From assembly GCA_038205745.1 (NCBI GenBank), contig JBBRBM010000003.1:3879-67878 (forward strand): DNA of 64,000 nucleotides. The letters are read 5' to 3'. The stretch comes from Verrucomicrobiota bacterium. GTDB taxonomy: Bacteria; Verrucomicrobiota; Verrucomicrobiia; Limisphaerales; SIBH01. The first letter of the stretch is position 1. Each line of letters starts with the position of its first letter. Shown here in pieces: positions 1,356-61,997 of this stretch. A program made the translations under genes and the position numbers. The notes below the pieces were generated by a model. That model saw only the letters and a program-made list of their open reading frames with translations, was not told where the DNA came from and did not search any database.

Positions 1356-1628
1356 ATGTCGCAAGCCATGATGGATCCCGAGCAGGTCCGGCGGTTCGCC
1401 GAGGAACTGCAGCGTTTCACGCGCGATCTCCAAAACCGCATGGGCTCCCTGCAGGCGCGCTTTTCGGCGCTGGGCGATTCGTGGCAGGACCAGGAACACC
1501 AGAAGTTCACTGACGAGTTCAAGCAGACCACGAAGGCGTTCAAGAAATTCGTCGAACTGTCGGACCAACACGTCCCGTTCCTTTTGCGCAAAGCGCAGCG
1601 CATCGAGGAGTATTTGAACCAGCGATGA
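1356..1628 (+). CDS. Small (90 aa) all-helical WXG100-like protein, with W-Q-D in place of W-x-G
   Basis: ATG 1356 is preceded by AAGGA (1346-1350). The size is ~100 aa. The central turn LGDSWQDQEHQKFTDEFKQ has the W-x-[G/D]-x5-F-x3-F spacing seen in Esx/WXG100 proteins. Heptad-like helical sequence lies on both sides. The gene sits directly upstream of a triple-FtsK ATPase. The in-frame upstream extension to 1146 is R/S-rich and lacks an RBS. Confidence 0.6.
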   Translation: MSQAMMDPEQVRRFAEELQRFTRDLQNRMGSLQARFSALGDSWQDQEHQKFTDEFKQTTKAFKKFVELSDQHVPFLLRKAQRIEEYLNQR

Positions 1629-1643
1629 ATGTGCCTGGTTGCA

Positions 1644-1710
1644 AGTTGAAGGTTGAAGGTTGCAGGTTCGTGCGCGCTCACCTGCAACCTTCGACCAGAC
1701 ACCTTCAACT
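1644..1710 (+). other. Extended intercistronic RNA stem-loop (13-bp inner stem plus 10-bp outer stem) with internally repeated arms
   Basis: 1655-1667 (gaaggttgcaggt) pairs perfectly with 1680-1692 (acctgcaaccttc), leaving a 12-nt loop. 1644-1653 (agttgaaggt) pairs perfectly with 1701-1710 (accttcaact). The left arm carries gttgaaggt twice (1645-1653, 1652-1660) and the right arm carries accttc twice. No U-tract follows. Confidence 0.6.
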
Positions 1711-1721
1711 CACCTGACGCC

Positions 1722-2294
1722 ATGGCCGACAGCGCACACGTCACTTCCGTCGATGCCATCGAGTCCTTCCGCGTGGGTCTAATCAATTACCTGAGCAAAG
1801 CCCGACCCGCTCTCGACGATGCGATCGATGATGTCGCCCGCACGCGTGACTGGCTTCAGCACAATCAACTGCGGCGTTGGGAGGGCGAATTGAAACGCCG
1901 GCGACGTGTAGTCGAGGAAGCGGAACAAGCCGTGTTCAGCGCCAGAATTTCCAGTCTCCGTGAAGTGTCGACGGCGGAGACTGCCGCCGTAACACGTGCG
2001 CGCCGGGCGATGATGGAGGCGGAAGAAAAATTGCACCTCGTGAAGAAATGGCTGCGGGTTTTCGGCAATCACGTCGATCCGCTGGTGAAGCAACTCGAAC
2101 AAGTGCAAACGATGTTTGGCAACACGATGCCCCGAGGCATCGCGCATCTGGCGGCATTGGTGAAGACGCTCGATGCTTACGCGAACGTCAGCACGGCGTC
2201 GTTGGCGGGACCGACACCACAAGCAACGCCAGAAGTATCGCCTTCAGATGCTGCGCCTGTGCAAACTGATCCCCTGAAAGCCGAACCCACATGA
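1722..2294 (+). CDS. 190-aa charged coiled-coil protein with a W-E-G turn after the first ~50 helical residues (possible extended WXG100/LXG-like protein)
   Basis: ATG 1722. The sequence ...TRDWLQHNQLRRWEGELKRRRRVVEEAEQ... has a W53-E54-G55 motif. Long helical segments are followed by a P/A/T-rich tail. Its stop overlaps the next start (ATGA at 2291-2294). Confidence 0.55.
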   Translation: MADSAHVTSVDAIESFRVGLINYLSKARPALDDAIDDVARTRDWLQHNQLRRWEGELKRRRRVVEEAEQAVFSARISSLREVSTAETAAVTRARRAMMEAEEKLHLVKKWLRVFGNHVDPLVKQLEQVQTMFGNTMPRGIAHLAALVKTLDAYANVSTASLAGPTPQATPEVSPSDAAPVQTDPLKAEPT

Positions 2295-2515
2295 TCTCCC
2301 AATCCCACATCAGTGCGAACGGACGGCTCGTCGCGGCGTTGACCAAAGACCTGATGCGCAACTGGGCCGGCACCAAGGAGCAATGGCAGGACGCCAAGGC
2401 CTATGAGTTCGAGCAACGATTCCTTTCCGAGCTGATGAACAGCGTCGATCGTGCGGTGCCGGTCTTTGAAGATTTGGAAAAGGTGATTAGAAAGATCAGG
2501 AGCGACTGTGAGTAA
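2291..2515 (+). CDS. Small (74 aa) WXG100-like helical protein, paralogous to the 90-aa protein
   Basis: It contains a literal W-A-G (residues 25-27) followed by EQWQDAKAYEFEQRF. It shares W-Q-D..F..(E/Q)(F/R)F...VP(F/V)F with the product of 1356-1628. It is translationally coupled on both sides (ATGA at 2291; an 8-nt overlap with GTG 2508). Confidence 0.6.
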   Translation: MISQSHISANGRLVAALTKDLMRNWAGTKEQWQDAKAYEFEQRFLSELMNSVDRAVPVFEDLEKVIRKIRSDCE

Positions 2516-5500
2516 GCACCTGACCGTCACACAAACGATCGAGCTGCTGGAGAGCCTCAAATCGACGGTGCGCGAATTCGCCGCCGCCGAAGAGAAGATC
2601 AATCGAGAGTTCAAGAGCAAGAGCGATGCGGCACAGAAGCGTTTCGAAGAAGAAGTCCGCACTCACGACTCCCAGGTAAACGATCAATTGCGACGCTCGA
2701 ATGCGGAGTTCGATCACGCGCAGGCGGGGGTGCAATCGCGTTACGAGCAACGCAAGTTGAAGATCGCGAAAGCCTACAAGAACGCCAAACGCCAGCGGCT
2801 CCAGCGTGTCGACGACGAAGAAGGGCGCATCAAATACCAAAGCCAGAAAGGGATGCTCGACACCAAGCGTTGGCGCACTGAGTCGCTGACGCGGAACGAT
2901 GTGCGGCTCGCCGACTTCAACCAGCGGCTCGCAGAAGCCCAGGCCACGTTGACCACGCTTCAGGACGAGGCGACAAAAGCATTTCGTGGCCACGGAAATT
3001 TCCGGAAAGAATTGGAGAAGCCCACAGGTGTTCCGAACATTGAGCGGACATCGGCCGAGGAACAGTTCTTCGAAAGGTTAAACGCATTGCTCACGCGCAC
3101 GCGCGAAAACCTCGACAAGTTCCGGATGCTTGCGGCGCCCCGGTTGTTCGGCGCCATCCCCATCGGTTTCGGCAAGAGCGAAGCGGCTCCGCTGGCAAAG
3201 ACGATCGCGCACGACCTCGAAACCAGCCGTCGCCTCTACGCGGCCGCTTCAGAAACGGCTCAGGCGCATCACGCTTCAGAGGTCGAACGCATCGAATCCG
3301 AGTCCAAACTACGGCTCGACGATTTTCAGTCGCACTGGACGGTGGGCATCGAGGGAGCCGAACGCGCAAGAGGGATCTGGCCCGGATACGTTGACGAGAA
3401 AGAACAGCGCGTGACGGTCAGACTGGAACAACTGCACATCGCGCGGCTGAACAGGTTGGAGTCCGAGCACAACGAGCGTGTATCAAAAACCCGCGGCGAG
3501 TCTGACGCGAAGCGATCCTCGATCGTCGCTACACACGAAACCCGCGCTGCGAAGTTTCGTTCCGACTACGAGGCTCAATGGCAAAAGCTGGAACTTGATT
3601 GGCGCTTGAGCGTCGAACCGCTTCTGCGCGCGATCGAAGCGGCGAACACCGCGGCGGCGGAATTCAAGCCGTGGACTCCGGAGTTATGGAGCGATTGGTT
3701 GACGCCGACCGAGTTTGGAAACGCCGCCGGCTTCGCGCGGCTCGAAGTGGAGCTGAAACGTTTCGCCGAGGCTGTTCCACACGACACGCGGCTTCAGCGT
3801 GCCCCCGGCATCTTGCCGGGTCCGGTCTTGGAATTCACAACAAGGCGCTCGTCTGAGAGCAACGCCCGGCAAGATGCCGGGGGCACGCTGTTTTCACTGC
3901 CGCTTGTGCTCACGTATCCGCAGCAAGGTTCCGTCTTGTTCGAGACCACGCGCACCGGAAACGAGCCGGTGTTCGAGGCGTTGAACAACATCATCTTCCG
4001 ACTGCTTTCCACGACACCCGCGGGCAAGTTGAGTTTCACAATCATCGACCCGGTGAAGCTTGGGCAGAACTTCTCCACTGTGATGCACCTCGCGGATTAC
4101 GAAGACAACGTCATCAACGGCCGCATCTGGACGCAGCCGAACCAAATTGACGAACGGCTCGGCGAGTTGAACGAGCACATGGAGAAAGTCATCCAGATGT
4201 ATCTCCGCAACGAGTACGAGACGATCGCGGAATACAATCGGCAGGCCGGAAACATCGCGGAGAAATATCACTTCGTCGTCGTGGCGGATTTCCCGGCGAA
4301 CTTCACCGACAGCGCGGTGAAGCGGTTGCTCCGCATTGCCGCGAGCGGTGCGCGCTGCGGTGTTTACACACTGATCCATTGGGATCATCGGCACACCGCG
4401 CCGGCGGATTTCTTTCCTGAGGAACTCCGCAAGAGCAGCGTGTGCATCAACATGGCGGGCGAACAGTTCGTGCTCGCTCATCCGTTCGTGCCAGGCGTGA
4501 AGGTGTTGCTGGATGCGCCGCCCGCGCCGGATTTCGCAACGGAATTTCTACACAAGGTCGGCGAGGCGGGTCGCGGATCGAATCGCGTTGAAGTGCCGTT
4601 CGCCCAGATCGCGCCGGCGCCGGACGACATCTGGTCGCTTGAAACGACGGAAGAACTTCGCGTTCCAATCGGACGCTCTGGCGCGACGAAGCTGCAGTAT
4701 CTCGCGATCGGAAAAGGCACCCGGCAACACGCGCTCGTCGCGGGCAAAACCGGCTCCGGCAAATCGACACTGTTCCACGTCATCATCACGAACCTCGCGC
4801 TCTGGTGCAGTCCCGAGCAGGTGGAGTTTTACCTCGTGGATTTCAAGAAGGGCGTTGAGTTCAAAAGCTATGCAACGAATCGATTGCCACACGCGAAAGT
4901 GGTGGCGATCGAGAGCGATCGCGAGTTCGGGCTCAGTGTGTTGCAGCGGCTGGACGAAGAATTGAAGCGCCGCGGCGAACTGTTCCGCAAACTCGGCGTG
5001 CAGGACGTTGCCGGATACAAGCGCGTCGGCGCTTCGCTGCAGACGGCCATTGAACCGATGCCCCGCACCTTGCTGCTCATCGATGAGTTCCAGGAATTCT
5101 TCGTGGAGGACGATCGCATCGCGCAGGCGGCGAATCTGTTGCTTGATCGCATTGTGCGCCAGGGCCGCGCGTTTGGCATTCACTGCATCCTCGGCTCGCA
5201 GACGCTCGGTGGCGCCTACACGCTTGCGCGCACCACGATTGGGCAAATGGTCATCCGCGTCGCGCTCCAGTGCAACGAAGCCGACGCTTACCTGATCATG
5301 GACGAGAACAACGCTGCGCCGCGTTTGCTCACGCGTCCTGGCGAAGGCATCTACAACGACATGGCTGGCGCGAGCGAAGGCAACAGCCCGTTCCAGGCCG
5401 TCTGGATCAGCGATGAAGAACGCGACGCGCGACTCACTCACGTGCGGCGCGTCGCAGATGAGCGTGGTGGAAAATTTTCCGTGCCGATTGTTTTCGAAGG

Positions 5501-6344
5501 CAACGCCCCCGCCGATGTGCGGGACAATCCATTGCTGCAACAATTGCTCGCCAACGGAGCGCAGAACTCCAGCTCTGTGCGCATCTGGCTCGGCGCCCCG
5601 AACTCGATCAAAGGTCCGACCGAAGCCGTGTTCCAAAATCGCAGCGGCAACAATTTGCTCGTGGTCGGTCAACGCGAAGAAGCAGTGCTGGCAATGTTGA
5701 GCGCGTCGCTGATTGCACTCGCCGCGCAGTTCGATAAGGGCGCGGCGAAGTTCATCCTGTTCGAGAGCACCGCGCCAGGTTCCGCAGAGCGCGCGTTCAT
5801 TGAACGCGTGGCGCGGGCCATTCCACACGGCGTCACACTGGGCAAACCCGGCGATCTCGTCGCCGTGCTCAACGGGCTCGCAGAAGATTTGCAGGACCGA
5901 ACGAACAGCGAACACGCGACGACACCGACGTTCCTGTTTCTTCACGGCATGCAGAATCTGAAGAAGCTAAAGCAGGACGATGAGTTCGCTTTCAGCAGCA
6001 GCGACGACGGCCCGAGTCCATCCGCACAATTGCAAAAATTGATTACCGAAGGCCCCGCGCATGGAATTCATGTGATCGCCACGCTCGACACTTTCAACAA
6101 CGTGACTCGTTTCCTCGGACGCAAGCTGCTGAGCGAATTCGAAATGCGCGTTCTCTTCCAAATGAGCGCGAACGATTCGTCGAGCCTCTGTGATGATCCA
6201 AAGGCCAGCACGCTCGGACTTCATCGCGCGCTTTTTTACAACGAGCAGGAGGGTTACCTGGAAACATTCCGACCTTATGCGCTGCCCAACCTGGAATGGC
6301 TTGAGCACGTGGCGGAGCAGTTATCGCGTCGCGTGCAGGGCTAA
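2508..6344 (+). CDS. FtsK/SpoIIIE-family ATPase with three tandem P-loop domains (EssC/EccC-like), a long N-terminal coiled coil and no recognisable TM segment
   Basis: GTG start at 2508. The middle domain is canonical: HALVAGKTGSGKSTLFHVIITNL (Walker A), RTLLLIDEFQEFF (Walker B), GRAFGIHCILGSQ. A degenerate upstream domain (approx. nt 3889-4400) has LSFTIIDPVKLG, YHFVVVADFP and GARCGVYTLI, with TRTGNEPV at the Walker A position. A degenerate downstream domain (approx. 5570-6344) has NNLLVVGQREEAVL, PTFLFLHGMQ and GPAHGIHVIATLD. The first ~450 aa are K/E/R/Q-rich coiled coil. Confidence 0.85.
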   Translation: MSKHLTVTQTIELLESLKSTVREFAAAEEKINREFKSKSDAAQKRFEEEVRTHDSQVNDQLRRSNAEFDHAQAGVQSRYEQRKLKIAKAYKNAKRQRLQRVDDEEGRIKYQSQKGMLDTKRWRTESLTRNDVRLADFNQRLAEAQATLTTLQDEATKAFRGHGNFRKELEKPTGVPNIERTSAEEQFFERLNALLTRTRENLDKFRMLAAPRLFGAIPIGFGKSEAAPLAKTIAHDLETSRRLYAAASETAQAHHASEVERIESESKLRLDDFQSHWTVGIEGAERARGIWPGYVDEKEQRVTVRLEQLHIARLNRLESEHNERVSKTRGESDAKRSSIVATHETRAAKFRSDYEAQWQKLELDWRLSVEPLLRAIEAANTAAAEFKPWTPELWSDWLTPTEFGNAAGFARLEVELKRFAEAVPHDTRLQRAPGILPGPVLEFTTRRSSESNARQDAGGTLFSLPLVLTYPQQGSVLFETTRTGNEPVFEALNNIIFRLLSTTPAGKLSFTIIDPVKLGQNFSTVMHLADYEDNVINGRIWTQPNQIDERLGELNEHMEKVIQMYLRNEYETIAEYNRQAGNIAEKYHFVVVADFPANFTDSAVKRLLRIAASGARCGVYTLIHWDHRHTAPADFFPEELRKSSVCINMAGEQFVLAHPFVPGVKVLLDAPPAPDFATEFLHKVGEAGRGSNRVEVPFAQIAPAPDDIWSLETTEELRVPIGRSGATKLQYLAIGKGTRQHALVAGKTGSGKSTLFHVIITNLALWCSPEQVEFYLVDFKKGVEFKSYATNRLPHAKVVAIESDREFGLSVLQRLDEELKRRGELFRKLGVQDVAGYKRVGASLQTAIEPMPRTLLLIDEFQEFFVEDDRIAQAANLLLDRIVRQGRAFGIHCILGSQTLGGAYTLARTTIGQMVIRVALQCNEADAYLIMDENNAAPRLLTRPGEGIYNDMAGASEGNSPFQAVWISDEERDARLTHVRRVADERGGKFSVPIVFEGNAPADVRDNPLLQQLLANGAQNSSSVRIWLGAPNSIKGPTEAVFQNRSGNNLLVVGQREEAVLAMLSASLIALAAQFDKGAAKFILFESTAPGSAERAFIERVARAIPHGVTLGKPGDLVAVLNGLAEDLQDRTNSEHATTPTFLFLHGMQNLKKLKQDDEFAFSSSDDGPSPSAQLQKLITEGPAHGIHVIATLDTFNNVTRFLGRKLLSEFEMRVLFQMSANDSSSLCDDPKASTLGLHRALFYNEQEGYLETFRPYALPNLEWLEHVAEQLSRRVQG
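4743..5090 (+). other. The only intact nucleotide-binding site of the ATPase: Walker A GKTGSGKST (4743-4769) and Walker B LLLIDEF (5070-5090)
   Basis: Read codon by codon and in frame with the 2508 start. Confidence 0.9.
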
Positions 6345-6393
6345 AAGTCAGCGCGGCTGGACAAACAGGTGGCGGTCACCCTTAATTTCGCGC

Positions 6394-7173
6394 GTGCAAC
6401 GCTACGGCAGCAACAAATTCAAGACGGCCCTCGATGCCGTTCGTCGCATTGAGAACTGGCCTGCCGCGTGGAATTTGCGGCTGCGCCGACACCAGAATGG
6501 GCTGACGCTGCTGCGCTTTCGCGACGGGATGAACGTAGTCTGCCGAGGCAACACGCGCGATTGGGACGTGGTTCACGAACTGATGTTTGCCGGAGGCTAC
6601 GCGAGAGCGTTTGAGTTTTTACGTGGAAACCGTGGTCGTAAAGCGGTGCTGGATCTGGGTGGAAATATCGGCCTCTTCAGCCTGCTCGCGGCGGCACAGT
6701 CGCCCGAGCTTCAGTTGCACGCGTATGAGCCGGGACCTCCGAACTATCGCCTCTTCGAGATGAATCGGCTGGCGAACCCGCAATTGAGTGAGCGCATCAT
6801 TCTACATCGCGAAGCCGTCGCCGGAGAAACCCGCGAGACAAAATGGTTTTTCGACGAGAAGAATCCCGGCGGCTCAAGCCTGTTCGCAACGGAAGGTGCC
6901 TCGTTCGACGTTCGCATTACGGCGTTCGCCGACGTGGTCGCGTCCATGACAGACACCATTGCGTTGGCGAAGATCGATATCGAGGGCGCGGAGTTCGAAT
7001 TGATCGAGCGCACGCCGGCCGCAGTTTGGGAAAAAATTCCAGCCATCTCACTCGAACTCCACGGCGACCCGTCCTCGCGAATGACGCAGCCTCAATTCCT
7101 CGAACGCATGCGCGGCTACGGCTACAACATCCACGAGGAGACGGTCTGCTCTTACTTCCTGACACGGCGCTAG
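6394..7173 (+). CDS. FkbM-family SAM-dependent methyltransferase
   Basis: VLDLGGNIGLFSL (SAM-binding motif I) and AKIDIEGAEFELI are hallmark FkbM-family motifs. GTG 6394 was chosen as the start because the ORF-track ATG at 6190 overlaps the ATPase gene by 155 nt. The start is uncertain. Confidence 0.75.
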   Translation: MQRYGSNKFKTALDAVRRIENWPAAWNLRLRRHQNGLTLLRFRDGMNVVCRGNTRDWDVVHELMFAGGYARAFEFLRGNRGRKAVLDLGGNIGLFSLLAAAQSPELQLHAYEPGPPNYRLFEMNRLANPQLSERIILHREAVAGETRETKWFFDEKNPGGSSLFATEGASFDVRITAFADVVASMTDTIALAKIDIEGAEFELIERTPAAVWEKIPAISLELHGDPSSRMTQPQFLERMRGYGYNIHEETVCSYFLTRR

Positions 7174-47996: not shown

Positions 47997-50900
47997 CTAC
48001 GGATTCACGGCGTCCACACGGACGCGGTAAACACGCAGTGGCGCTCCCGCTGTATCCTTCACTGTCAACCGTGTGTTCCCAGATCCATTGATCAAATTCG
48101 TGAGTGTGTGCCATGAACCCGCGCCGAGCGTTTCGGCATACTCGACCGTGCTCGTGGCACCGGCCGGTGCATTCCAGGTCAACGTGACTTCTCCATCGAC
48201 GCTCGACAGCGAGATGGCGAGGCCCAGCTCAACTGACAAGGCGGCCGCGCGCACCGGCGCCGGCAGGATTATGGGCCCGGAACATTGCGCGCCGAACCAA
48301 AGCGCGGAATTACTTGCCTCACCCGGCGGAATGATTGGTGCGCAGTCGATTCCGTTTGGAACGCCGTCGTTGTCCGAATCGATGTCGAGGCTGCGTACGA
48401 GGCCCGCGTTGAACGTATAGGTCACGCCGTTCGTGTACGTGAGGTTGGTTGAACTTTGCGGCCCGGCGAAGTCCCGCACCCATCGGAAGCGGCCCCCTGA
48501 AATGTTCACCAGTCGCTCCGGCTCGACATTGGAATCTGCAAAATAAACCGTGAAATCCGGATCGATGGTGATTGAGCCATTGAAATTTGTGGCGTCATTG
48601 CGCAGCTCAAGGAAATCGACGTAAAGCGCATTGCTGGTCACCCCGCTCGAGAAACGGAACAGGTTCCTGCCGAAGCCATCGAGGACGAGCCGGCCCAGCG
48701 CAATGTTTCCGCTGAAGCCAGCCGGCGAGGTTCCACGGTCCACTCCGGGCCACGCAATACGGGATGATATCAGCGCCCCGGCTGTGGAGTAGATTCTCGT
48801 TCCCATCAAATCGCCAGCGATCGCAGGGAGCCTCGGCAACCGCACGCCGGAAGTGACGAACCAGTCATTCGTCGTGGTGGTGCCCAAGTCGCCGAATGAA
48901 TTGGTGGCGTCGATGACCAGCGCCCCCCGAATGTATTGGCCGAGCGCGTTGCTCACAGTCCCGGCGCTAATGAACGTGCTGGCGAAACTCAGGTTGTTGC
49001 CGTGGAACTCGATGTCCGATGTTGCACGAATCTCTGCATTCGAAATGTTGAGCGTCGATCCGGTCGCGAGAATCACACCGCCATTGGCGGTCAGAAGCGA
49101 CGGGAAGAACGTTCGTCCCACGTTCTGGAGGTTGGTGGAGCGAATCAGCAGCGATGATCCGAGGATCGATCCGTCGTTCACAAAATTGGCCAAAGCCGCC
49201 GGCACTATTGGAACGGGCGGGGTCTTCCTTTTCTTCTTTTTCTTCGGCGGCACATTGGTCGAGACGTGTCCGGCTTCGAAAACACCGAAGTAAGCCGCGC
49301 CCGAAATGTTCACCCCACCGTGATTCGTAAAGTTCAGAAGGTCGGCGGCGTTGGTGAACGCGAAGTTCGCCCCTACCGGCAGATTCAAACTGGCGTTGCT
49401 TTGGATAGTGAGCGCTGGCGCCTTGAGGTTGATCCCGGAATTCACGGACAAATTGTCATGAATGATCAGGCTGGGCGCCTTCACCTGGAACCGATGAAGC
49501 GTCACCGGTTGCTGGGATTCCAGGCAGTTGTCGATGATGAGCACATGGAAGCGCTGGCTCTCCAAGCCGCCTGTGGTCGTGTTGGTGATGTCGGCGGTCC
49601 ACGCGCCGCTCCATGCCGACACGGTGCCGAAAAGGCGATTCACAAAAGACGGTGCAATGTTCGAGAGCACCATGGAGCTGTTGGTCGTGGCCACGTCGAA
49701 GTCGATGAACGGCGCGTCGAGCTGCGCCAGCGTGTTACTGACGAGGTTGTCGGTGTGAATGCCAATGAAATCCTCCGACTTGATGCGCGTCGAGGCGAGG
49801 TTCAGCGAGCGCGCCAGAATGTTCACATTGCCGGTGAAATTCGTGGGGTCCGACAAGCCCGGGTTCACGCCCAACTGCTGGAAGATGGAGCCCGAAAGGA
49901 AAAACTGCTGCGCAAAGCTCGCCGCGTTGGTCTGGCCGACATGCACGGAATGCGCTGCGTAAATGTCGTTCGCGAAGTTCGTGGTGAAGAGCGCATTGTA
50001 GAAGACGCTCGGATCGAACACTGAATTGGCCGGCTGCGCGCCGGTGAAGAAGACGTTCGTGCCGAAAATGATGGGCGGCGAATCGAAATTACAATAACGC
50101 CCGCGGAACCAGGTGTAGGTGGACGGGCGCCGTGTGTTGGGAATCCGAGCTCCGGTCGTGGTCGTAATCGGCCTGGCAAAGAGAACGTTCGTCTGGCTGG
50201 CCGTCGCGTCGATAAAGGTGAGGTAGTTCGTGATGTACTGCTGGTTCACGATGTCGAAGTCCACGTTGCGGAACTCTACCACCGGTGCAAACGCCGAACC
50301 GGCCGGACCGAAGGAGGATATGAATCGAACGTCCACGTTCAGGTTGGAGGGCGAGATCAAGCTGTTCGTGGCCACGAACACGATGTTGATCATGGTGTTC
50401 GTCGGGTTGTTGACGTTGGTGTGAACGTATGCAGTGTAGCCATTGCCGCAGCCACCTCCGAAGAGGCCGAACCCGTTCGCGCCGATGGTGATCGAATTCG
50501 TGAAAAGAAACGAACCGGAGCGTGTAATCACCTGATGCAAAGGCGACGTGGGAAAAGGCAGCGAAAAGTTCGGCGAACTGAAACCCGTCGCAAGGTTCGC
50601 CAGCGAGAGCGGTGTCGCGTTCGTATCCACGGCATCCCCTCGTCCCGCGCCCCAATACAGGTCGGTGATCGCGGTATCCGCCGTGAAGTTCGTGCTCACA
50701 CTGAAGAAGGAGATACACGGCGTGAGGTTGCCGGTGGCTGGGCCCACGCGAATGCCGCCGCGATTCAGGTCCGCATAACCGTTCGAGGCGACCAGGCTGA
50801 TAAAGGCGACTTCCCCGCCATCCAGTCTTCCAGGGTTGACGATGTTGTTGGCGTTCACCAACAGCGACTCCGTGACGGAAATGTTTCCGTCGTTAAGAAA

Positions 50901-51236
50901 CATTTGCGAGGGACGCTGAAGCGCTTTTGAATTCTTGACCGTCCTGCGGCTCCTCGGCTTCTTCAGGCTGGAGCCGTCTGACTCATTGTCGAACCTGTAA
51001 CCGGGCGTGCCGCTCATCACACCGTTGTTGGTCCAGAATGCGACGTTCTGTCCCGTAAAGGGAAGGAAGCTGAACACTTCAAACGTGCTGCGATTCAAGA
51101 ACGCAGTTGCATCGATATTCGGCGGCGTCTGGCCAAGCGTGAGCGGCGAGTTGTTGATGTAAATCGGGGACGTTCCTGCAAAGGCGGGGTTCGTGCCGAT
51201 GAGGGCTGCCAGGATCGATGCCAAAAACTTTTTCAT
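47997..51236 (-). CDS. Secreted N/T/S-rich beta-helix-like repeat protein (1079 aa) with an internal poly-Lys/Arg stretch, a TSP3-like Ca-binding motif and the shared C-terminal domain
   Basis: ATG 51236 gives the signal peptide MKKFLASILAALIGTNPAFAG. The ORF-track start at 51362 would overlap the upstream gene. Long runs of short N/S/T/G-rich beta-strand-like repeats are present. The protein ends ...PLRVYRVRVDAVNP. Confidence 0.8.
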   Translation of the reverse strand: MKKFLASILAALIGTNPAFAGTSPIYINNSPLTLGQTPPNIDATAFLNRSTFEVFSFLPFTGQNVAFWTNNGVMSGTPGYRFDNESDGSSLKKPRSRRTVKNSKALQRPSQMFLNDGNISVTESLLVNANNIVNPGRLDGGEVAFISLVASNGYADLNRGGIRVGPATGNLTPCISFFSVSTNFTADTAITDLYWGAGRGDAVDTNATPLSLANLATGFSSPNFSLPFPTSPLHQVITRSGSFLFTNSITIGANGFGLFGGGCGNGYTAYVHTNVNNPTNTMINIVFVATNSLISPSNLNVDVRFISSFGPAGSAFAPVVEFRNVDFDIVNQQYITNYLTFIDATASQTNVLFARPITTTTGARIPNTRRPSTYTWFRGRYCNFDSPPIIFGTNVFFTGAQPANSVFDPSVFYNALFTTNFANDIYAAHSVHVGQTNAASFAQQFFLSGSIFQQLGVNPGLSDPTNFTGNVNILARSLNLASTRIKSEDFIGIHTDNLVSNTLAQLDAPFIDFDVATTNSSMVLSNIAPSFVNRLFGTVSAWSGAWTADITNTTTGGLESQRFHVLIIDNCLESQQPVTLHRFQVKAPSLIIHDNLSVNSGINLKAPALTIQSNASLNLPVGANFAFTNAADLLNFTNHGGVNISGAAYFGVFEAGHVSTNVPPKKKKKRKTPPVPIVPAALANFVNDGSILGSSLLIRSTNLQNVGRTFFPSLLTANGGVILATGSTLNISNAEIRATSDIEFHGNNLSFASTFISAGTVSNALGQYIRGALVIDATNSFGDLGTTTTNDWFVTSGVRLPRLPAIAGDLMGTRIYSTAGALISSRIAWPGVDRGTSPAGFSGNIALGRLVLDGFGRNLFRFSSGVTSNALYVDFLELRNDATNFNGSITIDPDFTVYFADSNVEPERLVNISGGRFRWVRDFAGPQSSTNLTYTNGVTYTFNAGLVRSLDIDSDNDGVPNGIDCAPIIPPGEASNSALWFGAQCSGPIILPAPVRAAALSVELGLAISLSSVDGEVTLTWNAPAGATSTVEYAETLGAGSWHTLTNLINGSGNTRLTVKDTAGAPLRVYRVRVDAVNP
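48000..48239 (-). other. Shared C-terminal domain, copy 4
   Basis: ...DGEVTLTWNAPAGATSTVEYAETLGAGSWHTLTNL...GAPLRVYRVRVDAVNP. Confidence 0.6.
48336..48386 (-). other. Thrombospondin type-3-like acidic Ca-binding motif (DIDSDNDGVPNGIDCAP)
   Basis: Read directly from the reverse complement of 48361-48386 and following. Confidence 0.6.
49224..49244 (-). other. KKKKKRK stretch within PPKKKKKRKTPP
   Basis: The + strand reads ctt cct ttt ctt ctt ttt ctt, in frame with the gene. Confidence 0.9.
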
Positions 51237-51247
51237 ACTCACGCGCA

Positions 51248-52753
51248 CTACTGGCTGCTTTGTCCTCTCCCCAAGACTTCCCGCCGCAATTGCTGCAAGG
51301 AGATGTTTTTGTATCGCGGATAAATGATCGGCGCGTTCGTGGAACCGTCGAACGAACCCCACACGCCGCTGCCAGATGCAGAATTCTCTCCGGGAAACTC
51401 ATCGAGAAACGCTGACTGGGTGCTGTTTACAAAATAGGGGAGCTGGTCCGAAAAGCTGATGCGAATCGGCGGTGCTATCACACCCGGGCCGTGGCTCAAG
51501 GCGGTTTCGTCCACACCGTTGATCAAATCATTGTCGGTCCAGTTCGCCGTGTCGCTGCGGAGCAGGAGAGCGGGGAGTAAATTGGCAACAAGTCCAATAT
51601 CCTCCGCCACAAAGACAAAATCCGGCTGCGTGATGCCACGGGCCACTGCTTGCACCACCATCGTAAAGTTCGAGCCAACCGCCACGTCCGTGTAGGCGTT
51701 GGTGATCGGCGTGAACGTCTGGCTAAAGATCGAATCGAAGAACACTCGTTGGAACCGCAGCTTGTTGCGCCCGCCCCGAAGCCCCTGGCTGAGGATCGAG
51801 TTCGTGCCGCCAATGACCACGTTCGTCACGCCCACCTGGTTCGTGATGCCGGTAAACGGCACCCACGCGCCCGACGCACCGAGGCCGGAGCCCAACCCGA
51901 CCGTCGGCAGGAGCGTTTCAACGGCCAGATTCTTCGGATCATAAAGAAACTTGATGCCGCCTACATCATCGCGAGTCAATCCCGTGCGGAACAACCCCGG
52001 CGCAATGCTTCCGGCCGGACCGGAATCAGCCACGCCGGTGAGAAACTTGAAGTGCGTGAGGCCCGTTGCCACCGGCACCGTCTCGTCATCGTTTCCGAAG
52101 CGGACTACTTCCAACGCATCCGCATGGTCGAAAGGAGGAGCAGCGAATTCCTGAATTTCGTAAGTGTAAAGCGTCCCGTTGACGTAACGCGACGGCGACA
52201 GCGTAACGGGATCGAAATTGCGCATGATGGTCACGTAGTTCGTGAACGACACGTTGTTCACGGTCGTCACAACCCGCGAGCGCAACGTGAACGTGTAGCG
52301 AATCGGGTCGGCGAACCCGAGTTCCTCCATGATCATCCCCATCGCAGTACTCTTGATATCGATGATCCCCAGCGCGCTCGCCTCGAAATTTTCACGCAGC
52401 GTCGAGGTCGAATATTCATCGAGGCTCGAACTGATCTGCGTCGATTTGGGCAGGTCGTTGAAATACTGGAACGCATCATCGATAGCCTTCGTCCCTTCCG
52501 AGCCGAAGTAATCAATGTACGATTTGTCGCAAGCGTAGGTAACCACGGGTACGTTCCAGCGAAAGCCTTCGCGCAGGTTCATCGGGCCGCCCAGGTCGCC
52601 GCCAAATCCATACGCCAGCCCGTTCACCTGCCATGAGGTGAGCGGACCCAGCAACGAGAACGCCTTCACTCCTGGAGTAGCAACCAACGCGATCACCGCC
52701 GCGCAAAGCTTGATCCATTTCGACATGTTCATGTGCATCGGGCGCGTCTTCAT
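51248..52753 (-). CDS. Secreted protein of unknown function (501 aa)
   Basis: The signal peptide is ...MSKWIKLCAAVIALVATPGVKA / FSLLGP. No catalytic motif was recognised. The start overlaps the upstream stop (ATGA at 52750-52753). Confidence 0.7.
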   Translation of the reverse strand: MKTRPMHMNMSKWIKLCAAVIALVATPGVKAFSLLGPLTSWQVNGLAYGFGGDLGGPMNLREGFRWNVPVVTYACDKSYIDYFGSEGTKAIDDAFQYFNDLPKSTQISSSLDEYSTSTLRENFEASALGIIDIKSTAMGMIMEELGFADPIRYTFTLRSRVVTTVNNVSFTNYVTIMRNFDPVTLSPSRYVNGTLYTYEIQEFAAPPFDHADALEVVRFGNDDETVPVATGLTHFKFLTGVADSGPAGSIAPGLFRTGLTRDDVGGIKFLYDPKNLAVETLLPTVGLGSGLGASGAWVPFTGITNQVGVTNVVIGGTNSILSQGLRGGRNKLRFQRVFFDSIFSQTFTPITNAYTDVAVGSNFTMVVQAVARGITQPDFVFVAEDIGLVANLLPALLLRSDTANWTDNDLINGVDETALSHGPGVIAPPIRISFSDQLPYFVNSTQSAFLDEFPGENSASGSGVWGSFDGSTNAPIIYPRYKNISLQQLRREVLGRGQSSQ

Positions 52754-54240
52754 TGAGCCGTGTAGCGTTGGCCAAACAAATCGAAGGCCGCTTCCGTTTG
52801 ATAACTCGACCAGATCACCATGGCGCGATTGTTCGCGTCCGCAGCGACGGCCGGATGGAATTGCCGCAAATACGTCGTCGTGTTCACGCGGAACTCGGTG
52901 CTCGTGATGTCGCCATCATTGAGCCAGCGACCGAAGACACCTTCACGTGAACCGTCCTGCGCGAGGCCCGTCCACACAACAAGCTGACCGCCGGGTGCGG
53001 CGGCAATCTGCGGGGTGAACTGGTCGCCGTAAGTGCGATTGTTGACGAGAAAACCTTCCGTGACGGCATTGCCTGACGGGCTGTAGGCACGAGCGTAAAT
53101 ATCGAGACTGTTCTCGCGCACCGAATCCTTCTGCGTCCATGTGATCGTGTATCCGCCACCTGCCGACGCGGCCACGCTCGGGCTGCTGCACGGCAAACCC
53201 GCCGTGTTCACCACGAACTCGTCCCCGACCGGTGTTCCATTGTTACTGAATACACGCCCGACGATATCGATCTGCCGGAGCAGTGCTTTGTTCGTGTCAC
53301 TACCGCGAATGATGAACGATTGCGCGACTGCGTCGTAATCCGCCCCGCTGCGCTGCAACTCGGAAGCCCACGCCAAAACGAAAGTTCCATCAGCGCGCGA
53401 CGCGATCGCAGGATTGCGCTGATTGAAAGCGCGAAACTGGTTGGCCAAGATCTCGCCGCCGATCTTTTCTCCCGTCGCCGTGAAGCGCTGAAAGTAAATG
53501 TCCTGCATCGAATCCATCTCGATCGGCACGGTCGTGAGCACAGTGTTGGTGATGCCGCGCTGGCCGCGCCATTTTACTTTCTCTGTGAGCACCTGCGTGG
53601 TGGCGGAAACTTTGCGCCCACTCGTGTATGCAACGATTACGGTGCCGTCAGACAACGTCGCTGCAACGGCTCCACCCGTGCGCTCGAGGTGGCGCTTGAA
53701 TGTTTCCTTGATGCGCACCGCGCGAAAACGCGCGTGATTATTTCGGATCATCGTCGCATTGATGGTAACACGATTGGCACTCTTTCCCTCAGGCGGGTTG
53801 ATCAGAATATCCTGCGCCGTCGTAAACGAGCCGTCCGCATTCAGGAAACGCGCGTAGATGTTTTGGAATCCTTGCTTGCCGCCCTGAAACACGACTGCGG
53901 CGCCACCGTTGCCCAGCAACGTCACGTGAGGTTTTTCCTGGTCACCCACGATCGTCTTGTTCACGCGCAACGCAGCGCCGACCGGATTGAGATTCTCATC
54001 CAGCTTGCGCGCGCCGATGCCAAACCCTTTGCCATCAATGAAGGGATCCTGCCAGACCACCCATCCGCCAGCCGGACTGATCGCGAGGCTGGGAGCGGTT
54101 TGGTCACCTGGAAGCGGGCCGGAGATGGCGGATTCTCCGCCCAGGGGATTAAAAACTGTGCCTGCAAAAACCAGCGTTACGGTCGCGAAAAAAAGTCCGC
54201 TTAGGACAATCCACTTCCGGACGCACGACGCAGGTGACAT
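52750..54240 (-). CDS. Secreted seven-unit repeat protein (probable beta-propeller), function unknown
   Basis: ATG 54240 gives MSPASCVRKWIVLSGLFFATVTLVFAG. Seven ~50-aa units share the pattern (F)xVNxxxxGxQxxPxxAxxxxGxxxxxWxx...G(R)x(F/Y)xxxGxxxxxEF, e.g. EFRVNTTTYLRQFHPAVAADANNRAMVIWSS and GFLVNNRTYGDQFTPQIAAAPGGQLVVWTG. Confidence 0.7.
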   Translation of the reverse strand: MSPASCVRKWIVLSGLFFATVTLVFAGTVFNPLGGESAISGPLPGDQTAPSLAISPAGGWVVWQDPFIDGKGFGIGARKLDENLNPVGAALRVNKTIVGDQEKPHVTLLGNGGAAVVFQGGKQGFQNIYARFLNADGSFTTAQDILINPPEGKSANRVTINATMIRNNHARFRAVRIKETFKRHLERTGGAVAATLSDGTVIVAYTSGRKVSATTQVLTEKVKWRGQRGITNTVLTTVPIEMDSMQDIYFQRFTATGEKIGGEILANQFRAFNQRNPAIASRADGTFVLAWASELQRSGADYDAVAQSFIIRGSDTNKALLRQIDIVGRVFSNNGTPVGDEFVVNTAGLPCSSPSVAASAGGGYTITWTQKDSVRENSLDIYARAYSPSGNAVTEGFLVNNRTYGDQFTPQIAAAPGGQLVVWTGLAQDGSREGVFGRWLNDGDITSTEFRVNTTTYLRQFHPAVAADANNRAMVIWSSYQTEAAFDLFGQRYTAQ

Positions 54241-54335
54241 AGGCTTGGAATTATTATCAATCGTGGTTTTCTTTGTCCACGCTTTCTTGCCCAATCTGGC
54301 TTCAACACGTGGCAAAATGACTGTCAGATGAGTCG

Positions 54336-55229
54336 TCACAACAAACTTCCCTGGGTGGATTGCGTCGCGTCGAGCTGCGCGAGCAATGTTTTGAATCCCC
54401 ACTTCGCATAGAGCGGGCGCAATCGCATCGCGTCGGGAGCGCGCACGGCGAGTTTCTCGAGCTGAAAGTCACACGGCAGATCTGCGTGCAGGCGGATCAA
54501 TTTCTGATTGCGGCGCACGATCGACTCGGCGTCCTGAAGGTTTGCGCGAATGCGCTCGGACTTCACCTCACCAAGCCGCGAGTACATCGCGTCAATCCTG
54601 CCGAACTGCTTCAGCAGATCAGTCGCCGTCTTCGGGCCGACGCCCGGCACGCCTTTGATGTTGTCCACGGAGTCGCCGATTAGACTAAGCCAGTCGACCA
54701 CTTGCTCCGGGTCAAGGCCGGTTTTCGCGCGCACCTGATCGATCCTCCAAATGGTTTCCGATTTGTCGTTCGGATTAAGCAGCCCCACATGGTCGGAAAC
54801 GAGCTGGAGAAAATCCTTGTCCGCGCTGGCGATCACCACTTCCACGCCGCCTCGAACGGCGCAATCGGCCTGGCTCGCGATCCAATCATCCGCCTCGACG
54901 CCTTCGTTCACGAAAGACGGGATGGTGGATGCTGCTAGAAAACTCTCGATCTCTGGCAGTTGTTTTTCCAGATCGCCGGGCATGGGCGGGCGTTGGATTT
55001 TATATTCGGGCAATGCCGCCATGCGCTTCTCGCAGAGCCCGCCGTCCCAGACGACACAGTGGTGCGTCGGCTGGAGCGTGGTTTCCATTTTCAAAAGCAT
55101 CTTGATGAAGCCGTAGATCGCGTTGGTCGGCGCGCCATCCGGGCCATTCAAACTCTGGATCGCATGGAAGGCCCGATACGCGTAAGCGTGGCCATCAACG
55201 ATCAGCAGACGTGGCGAAGCAGCTTGCAT
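54336..55229 (-). CDS. Stand-alone 5'-3' exonuclease (Pol I N-terminal / FEN-like domain)
   Basis: LLIVDGHAYAYRAFHA, VVIASADKDFLQLV and the H3TH motif DNIKGVPGVGPKTATDLLKQFG. ATG 55229 was chosen as the start. Confidence 0.8.
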   Translation of the reverse strand: MQAASPRLLIVDGHAYAYRAFHAIQSLNGPDGAPTNAIYGFIKMLLKMETTLQPTHHCVVWDGGLCEKRMAALPEYKIQRPPMPGDLEKQLPEIESFLAASTIPSFVNEGVEADDWIASQADCAVRGGVEVVIASADKDFLQLVSDHVGLLNPNDKSETIWRIDQVRAKTGLDPEQVVDWLSLIGDSVDNIKGVPGVGPKTATDLLKQFGRIDAMYSRLGEVKSERIRANLQDAESIVRRNQKLIRLHADLPCDFQLEKLAVRAPDAMRLRPLYAKWGFKTLLAQLDATQSTQGSLL

Positions 55230-55282
55230 CCGAAGAACGGTTGCGCGACTTGCCCTGCGGCGATGGCACAACCTCGTTCAGG

Positions 55283-58150: not shown

Positions 58151-58190
58151 CGTGTGCGTAACTCAGAATATGGGAAGACAAGGCAAAGCA

Positions 58191-58988
58191 TTATTTACGA
58201 ATCGTTGCACGTCGATTGTTTGAACTTGCGGACACTACAACCTCGTTTTCCGTGATAGCAACGATATTGTATTCTTCACCGCCCACAGTCAGCTTGTCGC
58301 CGACGCGCAGGTCTTTGAACGAGAGCTTGGGCTCGGGCGGATACGTCAAATCCGCCTTGTAGCCTTCCACTTCGGTGTAGGGCTTTTCCAACGTGACACT
58401 CGTTTTTTTCCCGTCCGCCAGTTCAATGACGGCTTCCGGTTGCTCAGGCGTGCCGCGAATGTCGCGCAATGTAAAAAGCTTCGAGGTGTGCTGCGTGTTG
58501 GTGGTGACGTATTGCGAAATCTTTATTCGCGCGCGGGCGTTCGTGGCCGCCTCCTGAACCGCGCTCATGTACAATCCACCCGGTGTCACACGGTCCACGG
58601 CGACAATCGTCCTCAATGGCGCGGTGTTCACCAATTTGAGAGCAGCACCGCCGACTTCCGTTCCTTTTTCGATTTTGAGCAGGGAGCCATCGGGCTTCTT
58701 CTGCCACGTCACGGGATTGACCAAGTTGTGCGGCAAACCGAAATCGAGCGCTGGCGGGTTCTTCGCTTTTTCAAGGGCGCCGGAAAGCTGCGCGAGATCG
58801 ACGGAAGGAACTTCCTTGCCCTTCTTCTTCTGCACGTTGCGATCGTACTCGCGAATCTTGTCTTCCTCGGCCTGGCGCACACCATACAGGTAAACGACCG
58901 CGCCGAGGAAACCGATCAACGCGAGCGCGACAATCACCTTCTCGTAGTGTTTCGCAAACAGGCCGCCAATTTTTCGCAGGAAGTTCAT
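58191..58988 (-). CDS. Single-pass membrane protein in the PilP position (Amuc_1099-position homologue), function unknown
   Basis: The N-terminal TM is VIVALALIGFLGAVVYLY. Its start overlaps the upstream stop (ATGA at 58985-58988). It lies between the PilO-position gene and the secretin. Confidence 0.6.
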   Translation of the reverse strand: MNFLRKIGGLFAKHYEKVIVALALIGFLGAVVYLYGVRQAEEDKIREYDRNVQKKKGKEVPSVDLAQLSGALEKAKNPPALDFGLPHNLVNPVTWQKKPDGSLLKIEKGTEVGGAALKLVNTAPLRTIVAVDRVTPGGLYMSAVQEAATNARARIKISQYVTTNTQHTSKLFTLRDIRGTPEQPEAVIELADGKKTSVTLEKPYTEVEGYKADLTYPPEPKLSFKDLRVGDKLTVGGEEYNIVAITENEVVVSASSNNRRATIRK

Positions 58989-59896: not shown

Positions 59897-59897
59897 C

Positions 59898-61781: not shown

Positions 61782-61997
61782 CGCACAATATGCGACCACA
61801 TCGCTGCGCACTGCGCCAGACGATGCGGAGTCCCGCTGCGTACCCTATTCGCAACAATACGGTCAAACAGAAAACTTATTCCGGTGATACTCGCGCAATT
61901 TATGGCGCAAGTTTTCTGGCAAGACGCGCGATGCGTTTTGAAGTTACACGGCGGAGCGGGAAAACAAAAATTTCCGCCGGTCAGGAAACGACAGCAT

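Follow-up and report, generated by a model that had tools for sequence, protein, structure and literature searches.

A conserved four-gene cassette of a WXG100 protein and a putative EssC/EccC-type ATPase in Verrucomicrobiota, without an effector gene and, in some lineages, without a membrane hairpin

The stretch analysed here, referred to as the window, comprises 64,000 nucleotides from a Verrucomicrobiota bacterium (assembly GCA_038205745.1, contig JBBRBM010000003.1, positions 3,879 to 67,878 of the forward strand). Between 1356 and 6344 it carries four co-directional genes, p1 to p4, which encode a WXG100 protein, a predicted long coiled-coil hairpin, a small helical protein and a putative ATPase of the EssC/EccC type, the type known from type VII secretion systems (T7SS). 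An initial annotation, made from the sequence alone, had seen in these genes either a minimal T7SS or a cytoplasmic system that reuses the pairing of a WXG100 protein with an FtsK-like ATPase; the coordinates it gave for the four genes, for an ATGA overlap at 2291 and for an 8-nt overlap at 2508 are confirmed. The features of the locus, with the evidence for each, are as follows.

1356..1628, + strand: p1, a 90-aa WXG100 protein (open reading frame (ORF) call and Pfam)
1629..1721, + strand: spacer with a stable RNA hairpin (folding and shuffles)
1722..2294, + strand: p2, a 190-aa predicted coiled-coil hairpin protein (AlphaFold2 (AF2) model)
2291..2515, + strand: p3, a 74-aa small helical protein (motif and weak profile match)
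2508..6344, + strand: p4, a 1278-aa putative EssC/EccC-type ATPase with a GTG start (Pfam, NCBIfam, Foldseek)
2508..3902, + strand: p4 N-terminal coiled-coil region, residues 1-465 (profile matches)
3168..3173, + strand: p4 deletion junction F221/G222 (alignment with homologues that bear transmembrane (TM) segments)
3915..4607, + strand: p4 domain A, residues 470-700 (AF2 secondary structure and motif)
4620..5387, + strand: p4 domain B, residues 705-960, predicted catalytic domain (Walker motifs, profile alignment)
4743-4766, + strand: p4 Walker A GKTGSGKS, residues 746-753 (sequence)
5070-5090, + strand: p4 Walker B LLLIDEF, residues 855-861 (sequence)
5460..6341, + strand: p4 domain C, residues 985-1278 (hhalign against domain B)

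The four genes form a translationally coupled operon. The ATGA shared by p2 and p3 is kept in 53 related loci, and the 8-nt overlap of p3 and p4 (GTGAGTAA) likewise recurs in relatives; no second copy of p1-p4 was found within the window. Directly 3' of the p1 stop codon, the p1-p2 spacer folds into a hairpin with a minimum free energy of -40.4 kcal/mol (z -4.4), a stability matched by none of 200 shuffles. This hairpin has no U-tract and is therefore no canonical terminator. Structured spacers of at least 30 nt separate p1 and p2 in 22 of 69 related loci, while the remainder have about 4 nt, and the element may serve mRNA stability or attenuation, so setting the ratio of p1 to the downstream products. 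A scan for promoters and terminators returned matches no more frequent than expected by chance.

The cassette is widespread. The p4 family (about 1290 aa) comprises more than 200 full-length members and more than 60 clusters at 90% identity, extending down to 46% identity to p4, and its architecture is common to all of the top 150 representatives (50% identity, exhaustive search). Relatives of p4 occur in at least 432 species-level genomes, nearly all from Verrucomicrobiota, with carriers among Limisphaerales/Pedosphaera, Chthoniobacterales and Verrucomicrobiales such as Verrucomicrobium sp. BvORR106 (L068) and Prosthecobacter. We fetched 80 loci, six of which are cut at a contig end, leaving 74 that are informative. 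In 69 of the 74, homologues of p1, p2 and p3 lie directly upstream of the ATPase gene on the same strand (p2 is present in 70 and p3 in 71), so that the ATPase orthologues are indeed linked to small helical proteins, as the initial annotation supposed; both linkage and conservation are far beyond chance. Clustering of all flanking ORFs within about 8 kb of the 80 loci yielded no other conserved neighbour, the best cluster being found in 9 of 80 and consisting of generic regulators. Within the same range, neither EccB/D/E-, MycP- or EsaA/EssA/EssB-like genes nor nuclease, immunity, VWA, kinase, phosphatase, relaxase or conjugation genes are conserved near the cassette. Given that no further neighbour is conserved, the cassette is a self-contained four-gene unit in variable chromosomal contexts.

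Some loci depart from this pattern. A family ATPase without adjacent p1-p3 is present in L010, L019 and L043, where the small genes may be encoded elsewhere or lost, and L065 and L073 have partial sets. It should also be noted that L016, L017, L018, L022, L055, L063, L064 and L071 come from metagenome-assembled genomes labelled Klebsiella, Bifidobacteriaceae, Acidobacteria-type or Limnocylindrales. These genomes carry a Verrucomicrobiota-type cassette about 50% identical to that of the window; they are probably mis-binned or mislabelled assemblies rather than instances of horizontal transfer.

The class of p4 was assigned by ranking its scores and its fold against EccC, EssC and FtsK. Pfam FtsK_SpoIIIE matches residues 735-899 with 117 bits. 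Against NCBIfam, p4 scores 125.7 bits for EccCa (equivalog cutoff 509), 104 for EccCb (346.6) and 85.4 for EssC (778.4), below each of these cutoffs, and 32 bits for FtsK. The profile of the p4 family scores 104 bits against EccC, 97 against EccC5, 85 against YukB and 31 against FtsK, and its active domain B aligns with D1 of EccC, EccC5 and YukB. The AF2 model of residues 432-1278 (predicted local distance difference test (pLDDT) 72, predicted template modelling score (pTM) 0.60) shows three alpha/beta domains. In Foldseek it matches best the cytoplasmic part of T. curvata EccC with its three ATPase domains (4nh0; E 8e-31, some 890 aligned columns), followed by EccC D2-D3 and EssC D2-D3 (1e-24 to 1e-18) and, more distantly, by the single-domain FtsK motor 2ius (E 2e-12). 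PF17854 and PF09397, domains present in the true FtsK matches P0067-P0074, are absent from p4. By this ranking the ATPase is of the EccC/EssC type and does not fall among the FtsK/TraB translocases, as had been proposed from the sequence alone.

The three tandem FtsK domains that had also been proposed are borne out as three FtsK-like domains, although only the central one has Walker motifs: p4 contains a single pair of Walker A and Walker B, both in domain B. Domain A is a degenerate FtsK-like domain without a P-loop. Its sequence similarity to domain B is undetectable (E 0.19), and it retains the FtsK-type strand motif 'LSFTIIDPVKLG' at the position expected from the model. The string TTPAGKLS in this domain was considered as a degenerate P-loop and rejected, because the secondary structure of the model puts it in the region of the FtsK-type beta-2 strand (…LSFTIIDPVK…); the true P-loop position is occupied by ETTRTGNEP and is degenerate. 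Domain C, likewise FtsK-like, degenerate and without a P-loop, aligns with domain B with a probability of 96% (E 3e-9) in hhalign. Column identity in the family is 88% for domain B, 74% for domain A, 67% for domain C and 45-47% for the N-terminal region. The profile of residues 1-465 finds only coiled-coil proteins in the PDB, profiles of domains A and C find nothing there beyond coiled-coil noise, and Pfam detects no FHA domain in p4. We conclude that p4 is an EssC/EccC-type protein with three stacked FtsK-like domains, of which only the central one would be able to hydrolyse ATP. Compared with the family consensus, the window's p4 has about 20 extra low-confidence linker residues before domain A (…EFTTRRSSESNARQDAGGT…; residues ~445-465, ~3840-3900).

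Judged by its sequence, p1 is a true WXG100 protein. It matches Pfam PF06013 with 43.8 bits (E 3e-11; cutoff 27.3), and its profile retrieves from the PDB H. pylori HP0062 as the best match (E 3e-10), followed by a Firmicute EsxB (1e-6) and S. aureus EsxA (4e-3). The turn reads W-x-D in place of W-x-G (W43-Q-D45) and is followed by F51 and F55; W43, D45, F51 and F55 are invariant in 36 genomes, across which the mean column identity is 83%. The last 17 residues are near-invariant, with a C-terminal stretch P-[YF]-LLRKAQRIEEYLNQR. p1 is thus nearly as conserved as the catalytic domain of p4 (83% versus 88%), which is more in keeping with a subunit or regulator than with a rapidly evolving, secreted effector. 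A homologue search seeded with the p1 alignment was taken up by nearly identical proteins from Verrucomicrobia, and no other phylum was reached. At NCBI, homologues of p1 carry the label 'WXG100 family type VII secretion target [Verrucomicrobiota bacterium]'. Public annotation of the cassette is inconsistent, as p4 homologues are called 'DNA segregation ATPase FtsK/SpoIIIE' and p2 and p3 'hypothetical'.

The small protein p3 has W-x-D-x5-F-x3-[F/Y] in common with p1. Its invariant residues are W25, W32-x-D34, F40 and C73, its mean column identity is 55%, and it is a probable divergent WXG100-like partner, to judge from this motif and from a weak match to the WXG100 protein of a sister module described below (hhalign E 2e-4, probability 46%). 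The match of the p3 profile to p1 itself is not significant (E 0.05), nor are the matches to the slot-3 small proteins of the sister modules; none of 34 p3 members has a Pfam match, EsxAB clan included, and the p3 profile finds no match among PDB sequences. The family always ends in D-C-E, with the invariant Cys one residue from the C-terminus, and this residue could be a docking, redox or modification site.

p2 differs from both. Its AF2 model (pLDDT 86, above 95 across the helices; pTM 0.64) is one antiparallel coiled-coil hairpin of helices 3-78 and 84-160, about 76 residues each, joined by a turn at 79-83. A disordered Pro/Ala/Ser-rich tail follows, and no domain beyond the hairpin is modelled. 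Mean column identity is 48%, and all family members have 160-230 aa, none with an added domain. No Pfam family, EsxAB clan included, is found in any of 36 members, and the profile has no match among PDB sequences. The fold search returned generic coiled-coil hairpins only, none with E <=0.001, and no Esx or LXG structure in the top 50. A resemblance to the stalk protein YscO of type III secretion systems (4mh6; TM-score 0.55/0.63, Pfam E 0.024) is a likeness of shape and was not taken as homology. Comparison of the p1 and p2 profiles is off-register and not significant (E 0.011), and the N-terminus of p4 has no similarity to p2.

The initial annotation had described three WXG100-like proteins, each with a Trp-x-(Gly/Asp) turn followed by F-x3-F. 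This holds for p1, through its matches to Pfam and HP0062; for p3 the conserved motif is shared and the profile support is weak; p2, with a longer and different hairpin, has to be removed from the group. The 'RWEG' read as a turn in p2 has its W53 in the middle of the 76-residue helix 1 of the model, where there is no turn, and of the 'NWAG' read in p3 only W25 is invariant, the rest being unconserved. The lack of EsxAB-clan similarity, which had been named as an outcome that would speak against the description, is complete for p2 only. The absence of a YxxxD/E export signal, raised earlier as a caveat, is borne out, as the motif Y-x3-[DE] occurs in none of the p1, p2 and p3 sequences.

Two strongly hydrophobic segments, at about residues 215-270, are present in 178 of 203 full-length family ATPases (~88%). 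They form a predicted 2-TM hairpin embedded in the N-terminal coiled coil and flanked by Lys/Arg-rich sequence. The window's p4 and its two nearest homologues, 79-80% identical to it (P0001 and P0002), lack exactly this hairpin: about 47 residues, corresponding to TM1, loop and TM2, are gone in frame, and the sequence on either side of the deletion aligns cleanly with the TM-bearing homologues. The maximum Kyte-Doolittle hydrophobicity of p4 over 19 residues is 1.44, with the peak inside the ATPase part, and the hydrophobicity scan detects no TM segment in p1, p2, p3 or p4 of the window. P0075, 60% identical, is also without the hairpin, with slightly different borders. In a neighbour-joining tree without bootstrap support, rooted on the TM-less ATPases of Rhodococcus and Caballeronia, the basal branches of the family are all TM-bearing, the window clade is deeply nested among TM-bearing members and P0075 is placed elsewhere; this topology implies that the hairpin was gained once, at the root of the family, and then lost independently at least twice.

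In both TM-less lineages the cassette is complete and its genes still overlap. The Walker motifs are also retained, intact in four TM-less ATPases that are only 60-80% identical to one another. Hence, the soluble form appears to be maintained by selection, and an assembly artefact is ruled out as its source. Because the family ATPase normally has a 2-TM hairpin, the absence of a membrane component is apparently a derived state. The remark in the initial annotation that no membrane component is visible is therefore correct for the window and needs this qualification. Between the position of the hairpin and the ATPase rings lie about 200 residues of coiled coil and disordered linker, a spacing that suggests a tether rather than a tightly coupled channel.

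Modules with a related layout, whose ATPases are the nearest to the p4 family from outside it, are found on plasmids. In a tblastn comparison, the ATPase part (87-95% of its length) aligns colinearly, through all three domains, with proteins of Rhodococcus, Deinococcus and Caballeronia that are 27-31% identical; a protein from a Helicobacter plasmid reaches 64% coverage of the query and 28% identity, and EccCa matches are confined to the central domain. The ATPases of these sister modules have one Walker A and no convincing TM segment. Their gene orders compare with that of the window as follows.

Window: WXG100 (90 aa) – p2 (190 aa) – p3 (74 aa) – ATPase
Caballeronia: VWA – WXG100 (89 aa) – 436 aa – 113 aa – 76 aa – ATPase – CARF – VWA – PP2C – kinase
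Helicobacter: 89 aa – HNH endonuclease – SMI1/KNR4 – 77 aa – ATPase
Rhodococcus: ATPase – 314 aa – 73 aa – 87 aa, with TerD genes near

Against the slot-1 proteins of the sister modules, the p1 profile gives hhalign values of 99.5% (Caballeronia, E 3e-23), 98.4% (Helicobacter) and 85%. The position of p2 is the slot that holds a nuclease effector in the sister modules. The N-terminus of p2 matches that of the 314-aa effector-slot protein of Rhodococcus with E 2e-4 and a probability of 45%, shuffled controls giving at least 0.18; comparisons with the 436-aa protein of Caballeronia and the HNH protein of Helicobacter are not significant. The Rhodococcus protein (L082, 9450-10394 of the plasmid locus) has a p2-like helical N-terminus, and its C-terminus (…NGFHRVWVARRLGLDSVP…) has, by eye only, the look of a ParB-type nuclease.

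The module class itself is already known computationally (Sutcliffe 2011; Anantharaman 2012; Uchiyama 2016; Bell 2024), and the implied novelty of a WXG100/FtsK pairing in Verrucomicrobia does not survive comparison with PMC6471051, PMC11090510 and PMC4978471. Sutcliffe 2011 is cited in PMC6471051 for WXG100 proteins in Verrucomicrobia, and Anantharaman et al. 2012 in PMC11090510 for an operon of WXG100 and coiled-coil EssC-like ATPase. Bell et al. 2024 (eLife, PMC11090510) describe EssC homologues with three ATPase domains, the central one alone active, in which an N-terminal coiled coil replaces the FHA and TM segments; their modules contain two WXG100 proteins, one without the motif, plus a coiled-coil nuclease, and a 'stand-alone' form is mentioned. 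HP0062/HP0066 has been called 'a minimal set of T7SS' (Uchiyama 2016, PMC4978471). In the crystal, HP0062 is a WXG100-like homodimer whose turn reads W-R-D, and its gene clusters with one for an FtsK/SpoIIIE protein (PMC3397514).

The closest likeness is to the module on plasmid pSBC2-5 of Caballeronia sp. SBC2 (L081), which has three FtsK-like domains with the central one active, a long coiled coil and neither FHA nor TM segments. There, too, two small helical proteins lie on either side of a coiled-coil protein upstream of the ATPase gene, whose start is overlapped by the last of the small genes; the WXG100 protein in slot 1 is homologous to p1, and the ATPase is colinear at about 30% identity. 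In contrast to such Caballeronia/CoCoNuT-type modules, the Verrucomicrobial cassette stands alone, without VWA, TerY-P, CARF or CoCoNuT genes. Its slot 2 appears to hold a bare hairpin without a nuclease, there is no DNA-mimic or immunity gene, most of its ATPases seem to have gained the 2-TM hairpin, and it is chromosomal and phylum-wide rather than mobile and accessory. The plasmid module of Helicobacter sp. NHP19-012 (L083) shares with the window the order of WXG100, effector slot, small protein and TM-less ATPase, but has the HNH endonuclease and SMI1/KNR4 genes in the p2 slot, and its ATPase, at 823 aa, has a much shorter N-terminal region. HP0062 (PDB 3fx7, 2gts)/HP0066 resembles the window in the best p1 structure match, the W-x-D turn and the diderm host.

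The canonical ATPases EccC (ESX/T7SSa) and EssC/YukB (T7SSb) share with p4 the multi-domain FtsK-like fold and an adjacent WXG100 gene, and EssC resembles most family ATPases, though not that of the window, in having an N-terminal cytoplasmic region, two TM helices and then the ATPase domains. The window's p4 differs from both in its lack of TM helices and FHA domain and in its single active P-loop, besides falling short of the equivalog cutoffs; a classical diderm host, the lack of the canonical T7SS genes nearby and the missing export motif further set the locus apart from a canonical T7SS. The LXG toxin of T7SSb with Lap1/Lap2 (PMC9600955) offers a functional analogy only, in which a long helical protein and two small hairpins are found next to an EssC-type ATPase. 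In the sister modules the long helical protein bears a C-terminal nuclease, in keeping with that analogy, while p2 has neither detectable LXG similarity nor a toxin domain.

Taken together, these results make it on balance probable that the locus belongs to the known class of 'WXG100 plus coiled-coil EssC-like ATPase' modules, derived from the core of a T7SS, as a Verrucomicrobial variant that stands alone, has no effector and, in this copy, no anchor either, and that it acts in the cytoplasm and is not a complete envelope-spanning secretion system. In such a module p4 would assemble as a hexameric ring like other FtsK/EssC ATPases, with the helical-hairpin proteins serving it as clients or regulators. 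A four-helix bundle may be formed by p1, either by itself or together with p3. In T7SS, EsxB docks on EccC D3; by analogy, the invariant C-terminal helix of p1 may dock on a degenerate domain of p4, and domain C is where the conserved C-terminus of p1 or p3 could dock. p2 would be a toxin-less long hairpin left from an effector-trafficking domain and engaged by the ATPase as a client, and the hairpins would be remodelled or translocated as the central ring hydrolyses ATP. In the TM-bearing relatives the same activity would probably take place at or across the inner membrane. The machine of the window would be soluble or at most peripheral, for which reason action in the cytoplasm seems most likely there.

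Several points weigh against this interpretation. The p4 hexamer, the docking of p1 on domain C and the pairing of p1 with p3 are drawn from analogy, outside this class WXG100 and EssC are known as a pair from secretion systems only, and the literature yielded no experimental study of any class member. About 88% of the family is membrane-anchored, so that periplasmic export is plausible for the family, and the tree from which gain and loss of the hairpin are read is a neighbour-joining tree lacking support values. The TM-less clades could also use a partner or paralogue elsewhere, beyond the view of a 64-kb window.

An alternative is that the locus is a true minimal T7SS, in which the ATPase hexamer alone would be the inner-membrane translocon that exports p1, with p3 and p2, to the periplasm. 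We regard this as unlikely, even though most family ATPases have a 2-TM hairpin in the position it has in EssC, with positively charged flanks, and the Helicobacter sister module encodes an HNH toxin with a SMI1/KNR4 immunity gene, which presumably makes it resemble an exported toxin system as known from polymorphic toxins. A WXG100 protein and an EssC/EccC-type ATPase are, moreover, the sole two components common to all T7SS variants, according to the abstract of PMC11217815. Set against this, none of p1 to p4 in the window has a TM helix, the hairpin has apparently been lost twice while the cassette was kept, and the ~200 residues of coiled coil and linker between hairpin position and rings look tether-like. 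There is also no YxxxD/E motif, no conserved EccB/D/E-, MycP- or EssA/B-like neighbour and no outer-membrane route, and p1 is unusually conserved for a secreted protein. A functional minimal T7SS in this genome, as the initial annotation contemplated, is thus disfavoured by the lack of TM segments in the four proteins, of a conserved membrane neighbour and of the export motif, and its alternative, a cytoplasmic system reusing the WXG/FtsK pairing, fits the window better. To our knowledge, Actinobacteria and Firmicutes are the only phyla in which type VII secretion has been characterised.

It is quite unlikely that the cassette is a conflict or defence module akin to the CoCoNuT/TerY-P- and HNH-toxin-linked versions, with its effector elsewhere or with p2 as effector or decoy. 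Such a role is suggested by the sister modules, which lie on plasmids in TerY-P/CoCoNuT, TerD or toxin-immunity contexts and have homologous WXG100 proteins in identical gene order, and by the weak match of the p2 N-terminus to that of the Rhodococcus effector-slot protein, whose C-terminus looks ParB-like by eye. The Verrucomicrobial cassette, however, has no nuclease, immunity gene or defence-island neighbours in its ~8 kb flanks, and the PADLOC scan gave generic FtsK/HerA matches only and no defence system model. It is shared by different orders and its p1 evolves very slowly, which is unlike accessory defence genes, and p2 stays at 160-230 aa throughout with no added domain. The decay of a system inactivated by loss of its anchor, the copy now becoming a pseudogene, would account for the deletion of an otherwise conserved segment; we hold it to be very improbable, since the deletion is exact and preserves the reading frame, the 3.8-kb ORF and the Walker motifs of the four TM-less sequences are intact, and both TM-less lineages retain the four genes and their overlaps. 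Finally, a DNA translocase of the FtsK/TraB kind, serving segregation or conjugation with the small proteins as accessories, would agree with the public labels and with the fold match to the FtsK motor 2ius, which lies far below that of EccC. This reading is barely credible in view of EccC/EssC scores far above that for FtsK, the lack of the FtsK gamma/alpha domains (PF17854, PF09397), the EssC/EccC layout of three tandem domains with one active ring, the conserved WXG100 linkage and the absence of relaxase or conjugation genes nearby.

The surroundings of the cassette in the window are varied. Divergent from p1 lies a gene on the minus strand (117-1010) that encodes a DUF1559 domain with a prepilin-type N-terminal methylation motif. 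Downstream lies an FkbM-type methyltransferase ORF on the plus strand (6190-7173). With the earliest possible GTG taken as its start, it runs over about 155 nt of the 3' end of p4; its real start is probably further downstream, and ORFs continue after it to about 9312. Three tandem giant ORFs of 4827, 2742 and 3761 aa occupy 13787-47887 on the minus strand and are built of Calx-beta, DUF5122 beta-propeller, DUF11 and PKD repeats; their products are probably very large surface proteins or adhesins. As cargo of the cassette these giant Calx-beta proteins were rejected: they are on the opposite strand, other genomes show no linkage between them and the cassette, and Pfam reports no WXG/LXG-like N-terminus. 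On the same strand, 47997-61811 holds three ORFs (1121, 501 and 550 aa) without a Pfam match, adjoined by a secretin (55283-58150; PF00263 and TPR) and a PilM/FtsA-like protein (59898-61811). The region looks like an assembly cluster of a type IV pilus or of a type II secretion-like system, and the secretin confirms a diderm envelope. Along with the DUF1559 prepilin-like protein and the Verrucomicrobiota relatives, it upholds the Verrucomicrobia-like diderm host that had been expected from the sequence. No tRNA genes or Rfam families were found in the window.

What is new here is a four-gene, effector-less cassette conserved across a phylum. To this we add that the Verrucomicrobial family has apparently acquired a TM hairpin and then lost it cleanly more than once, the window included, and that p2, on the model, is a long hairpin in the effector slot. 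What the EssC/EccC and WXG100 pair does by itself can be addressed in this family. It provides a simple natural test case of only four genes, without a toxin or any further conserved partner, and is found in hundreds of diderm species. Some of its carriers are cultivable (Verrucomicrobium sp. BvORR106 for example), and sister lineages with and without the anchor permit direct comparison. We tentatively suggest that a mobile effector-delivery module with the T7SS core may have been domesticated in Verrucomicrobia, becoming a machine that is found throughout the phylum and has no effector, in which the WXG100 protein would be a constrained subunit or regulator and not cargo, and the ATP-driven activity of the membrane-free core on helical hairpins would be a non-secretory function. 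If so, the recurrent loss of the anchor would be a natural experiment on what the EssC-WXG100 core does without membrane insertion. Export of the WXG100 protein by the TM-bearing form, if it occurs, would make this the smallest known T7SS and the first from a classical diderm. If, on the other hand, the module works in the cytoplasm, it would reveal a non-secretory role for T7SS-type machinery, one that would also inform the CoCoNuT/TerY-P-linked modules and the Helicobacter HP0062/HP0066 locus.

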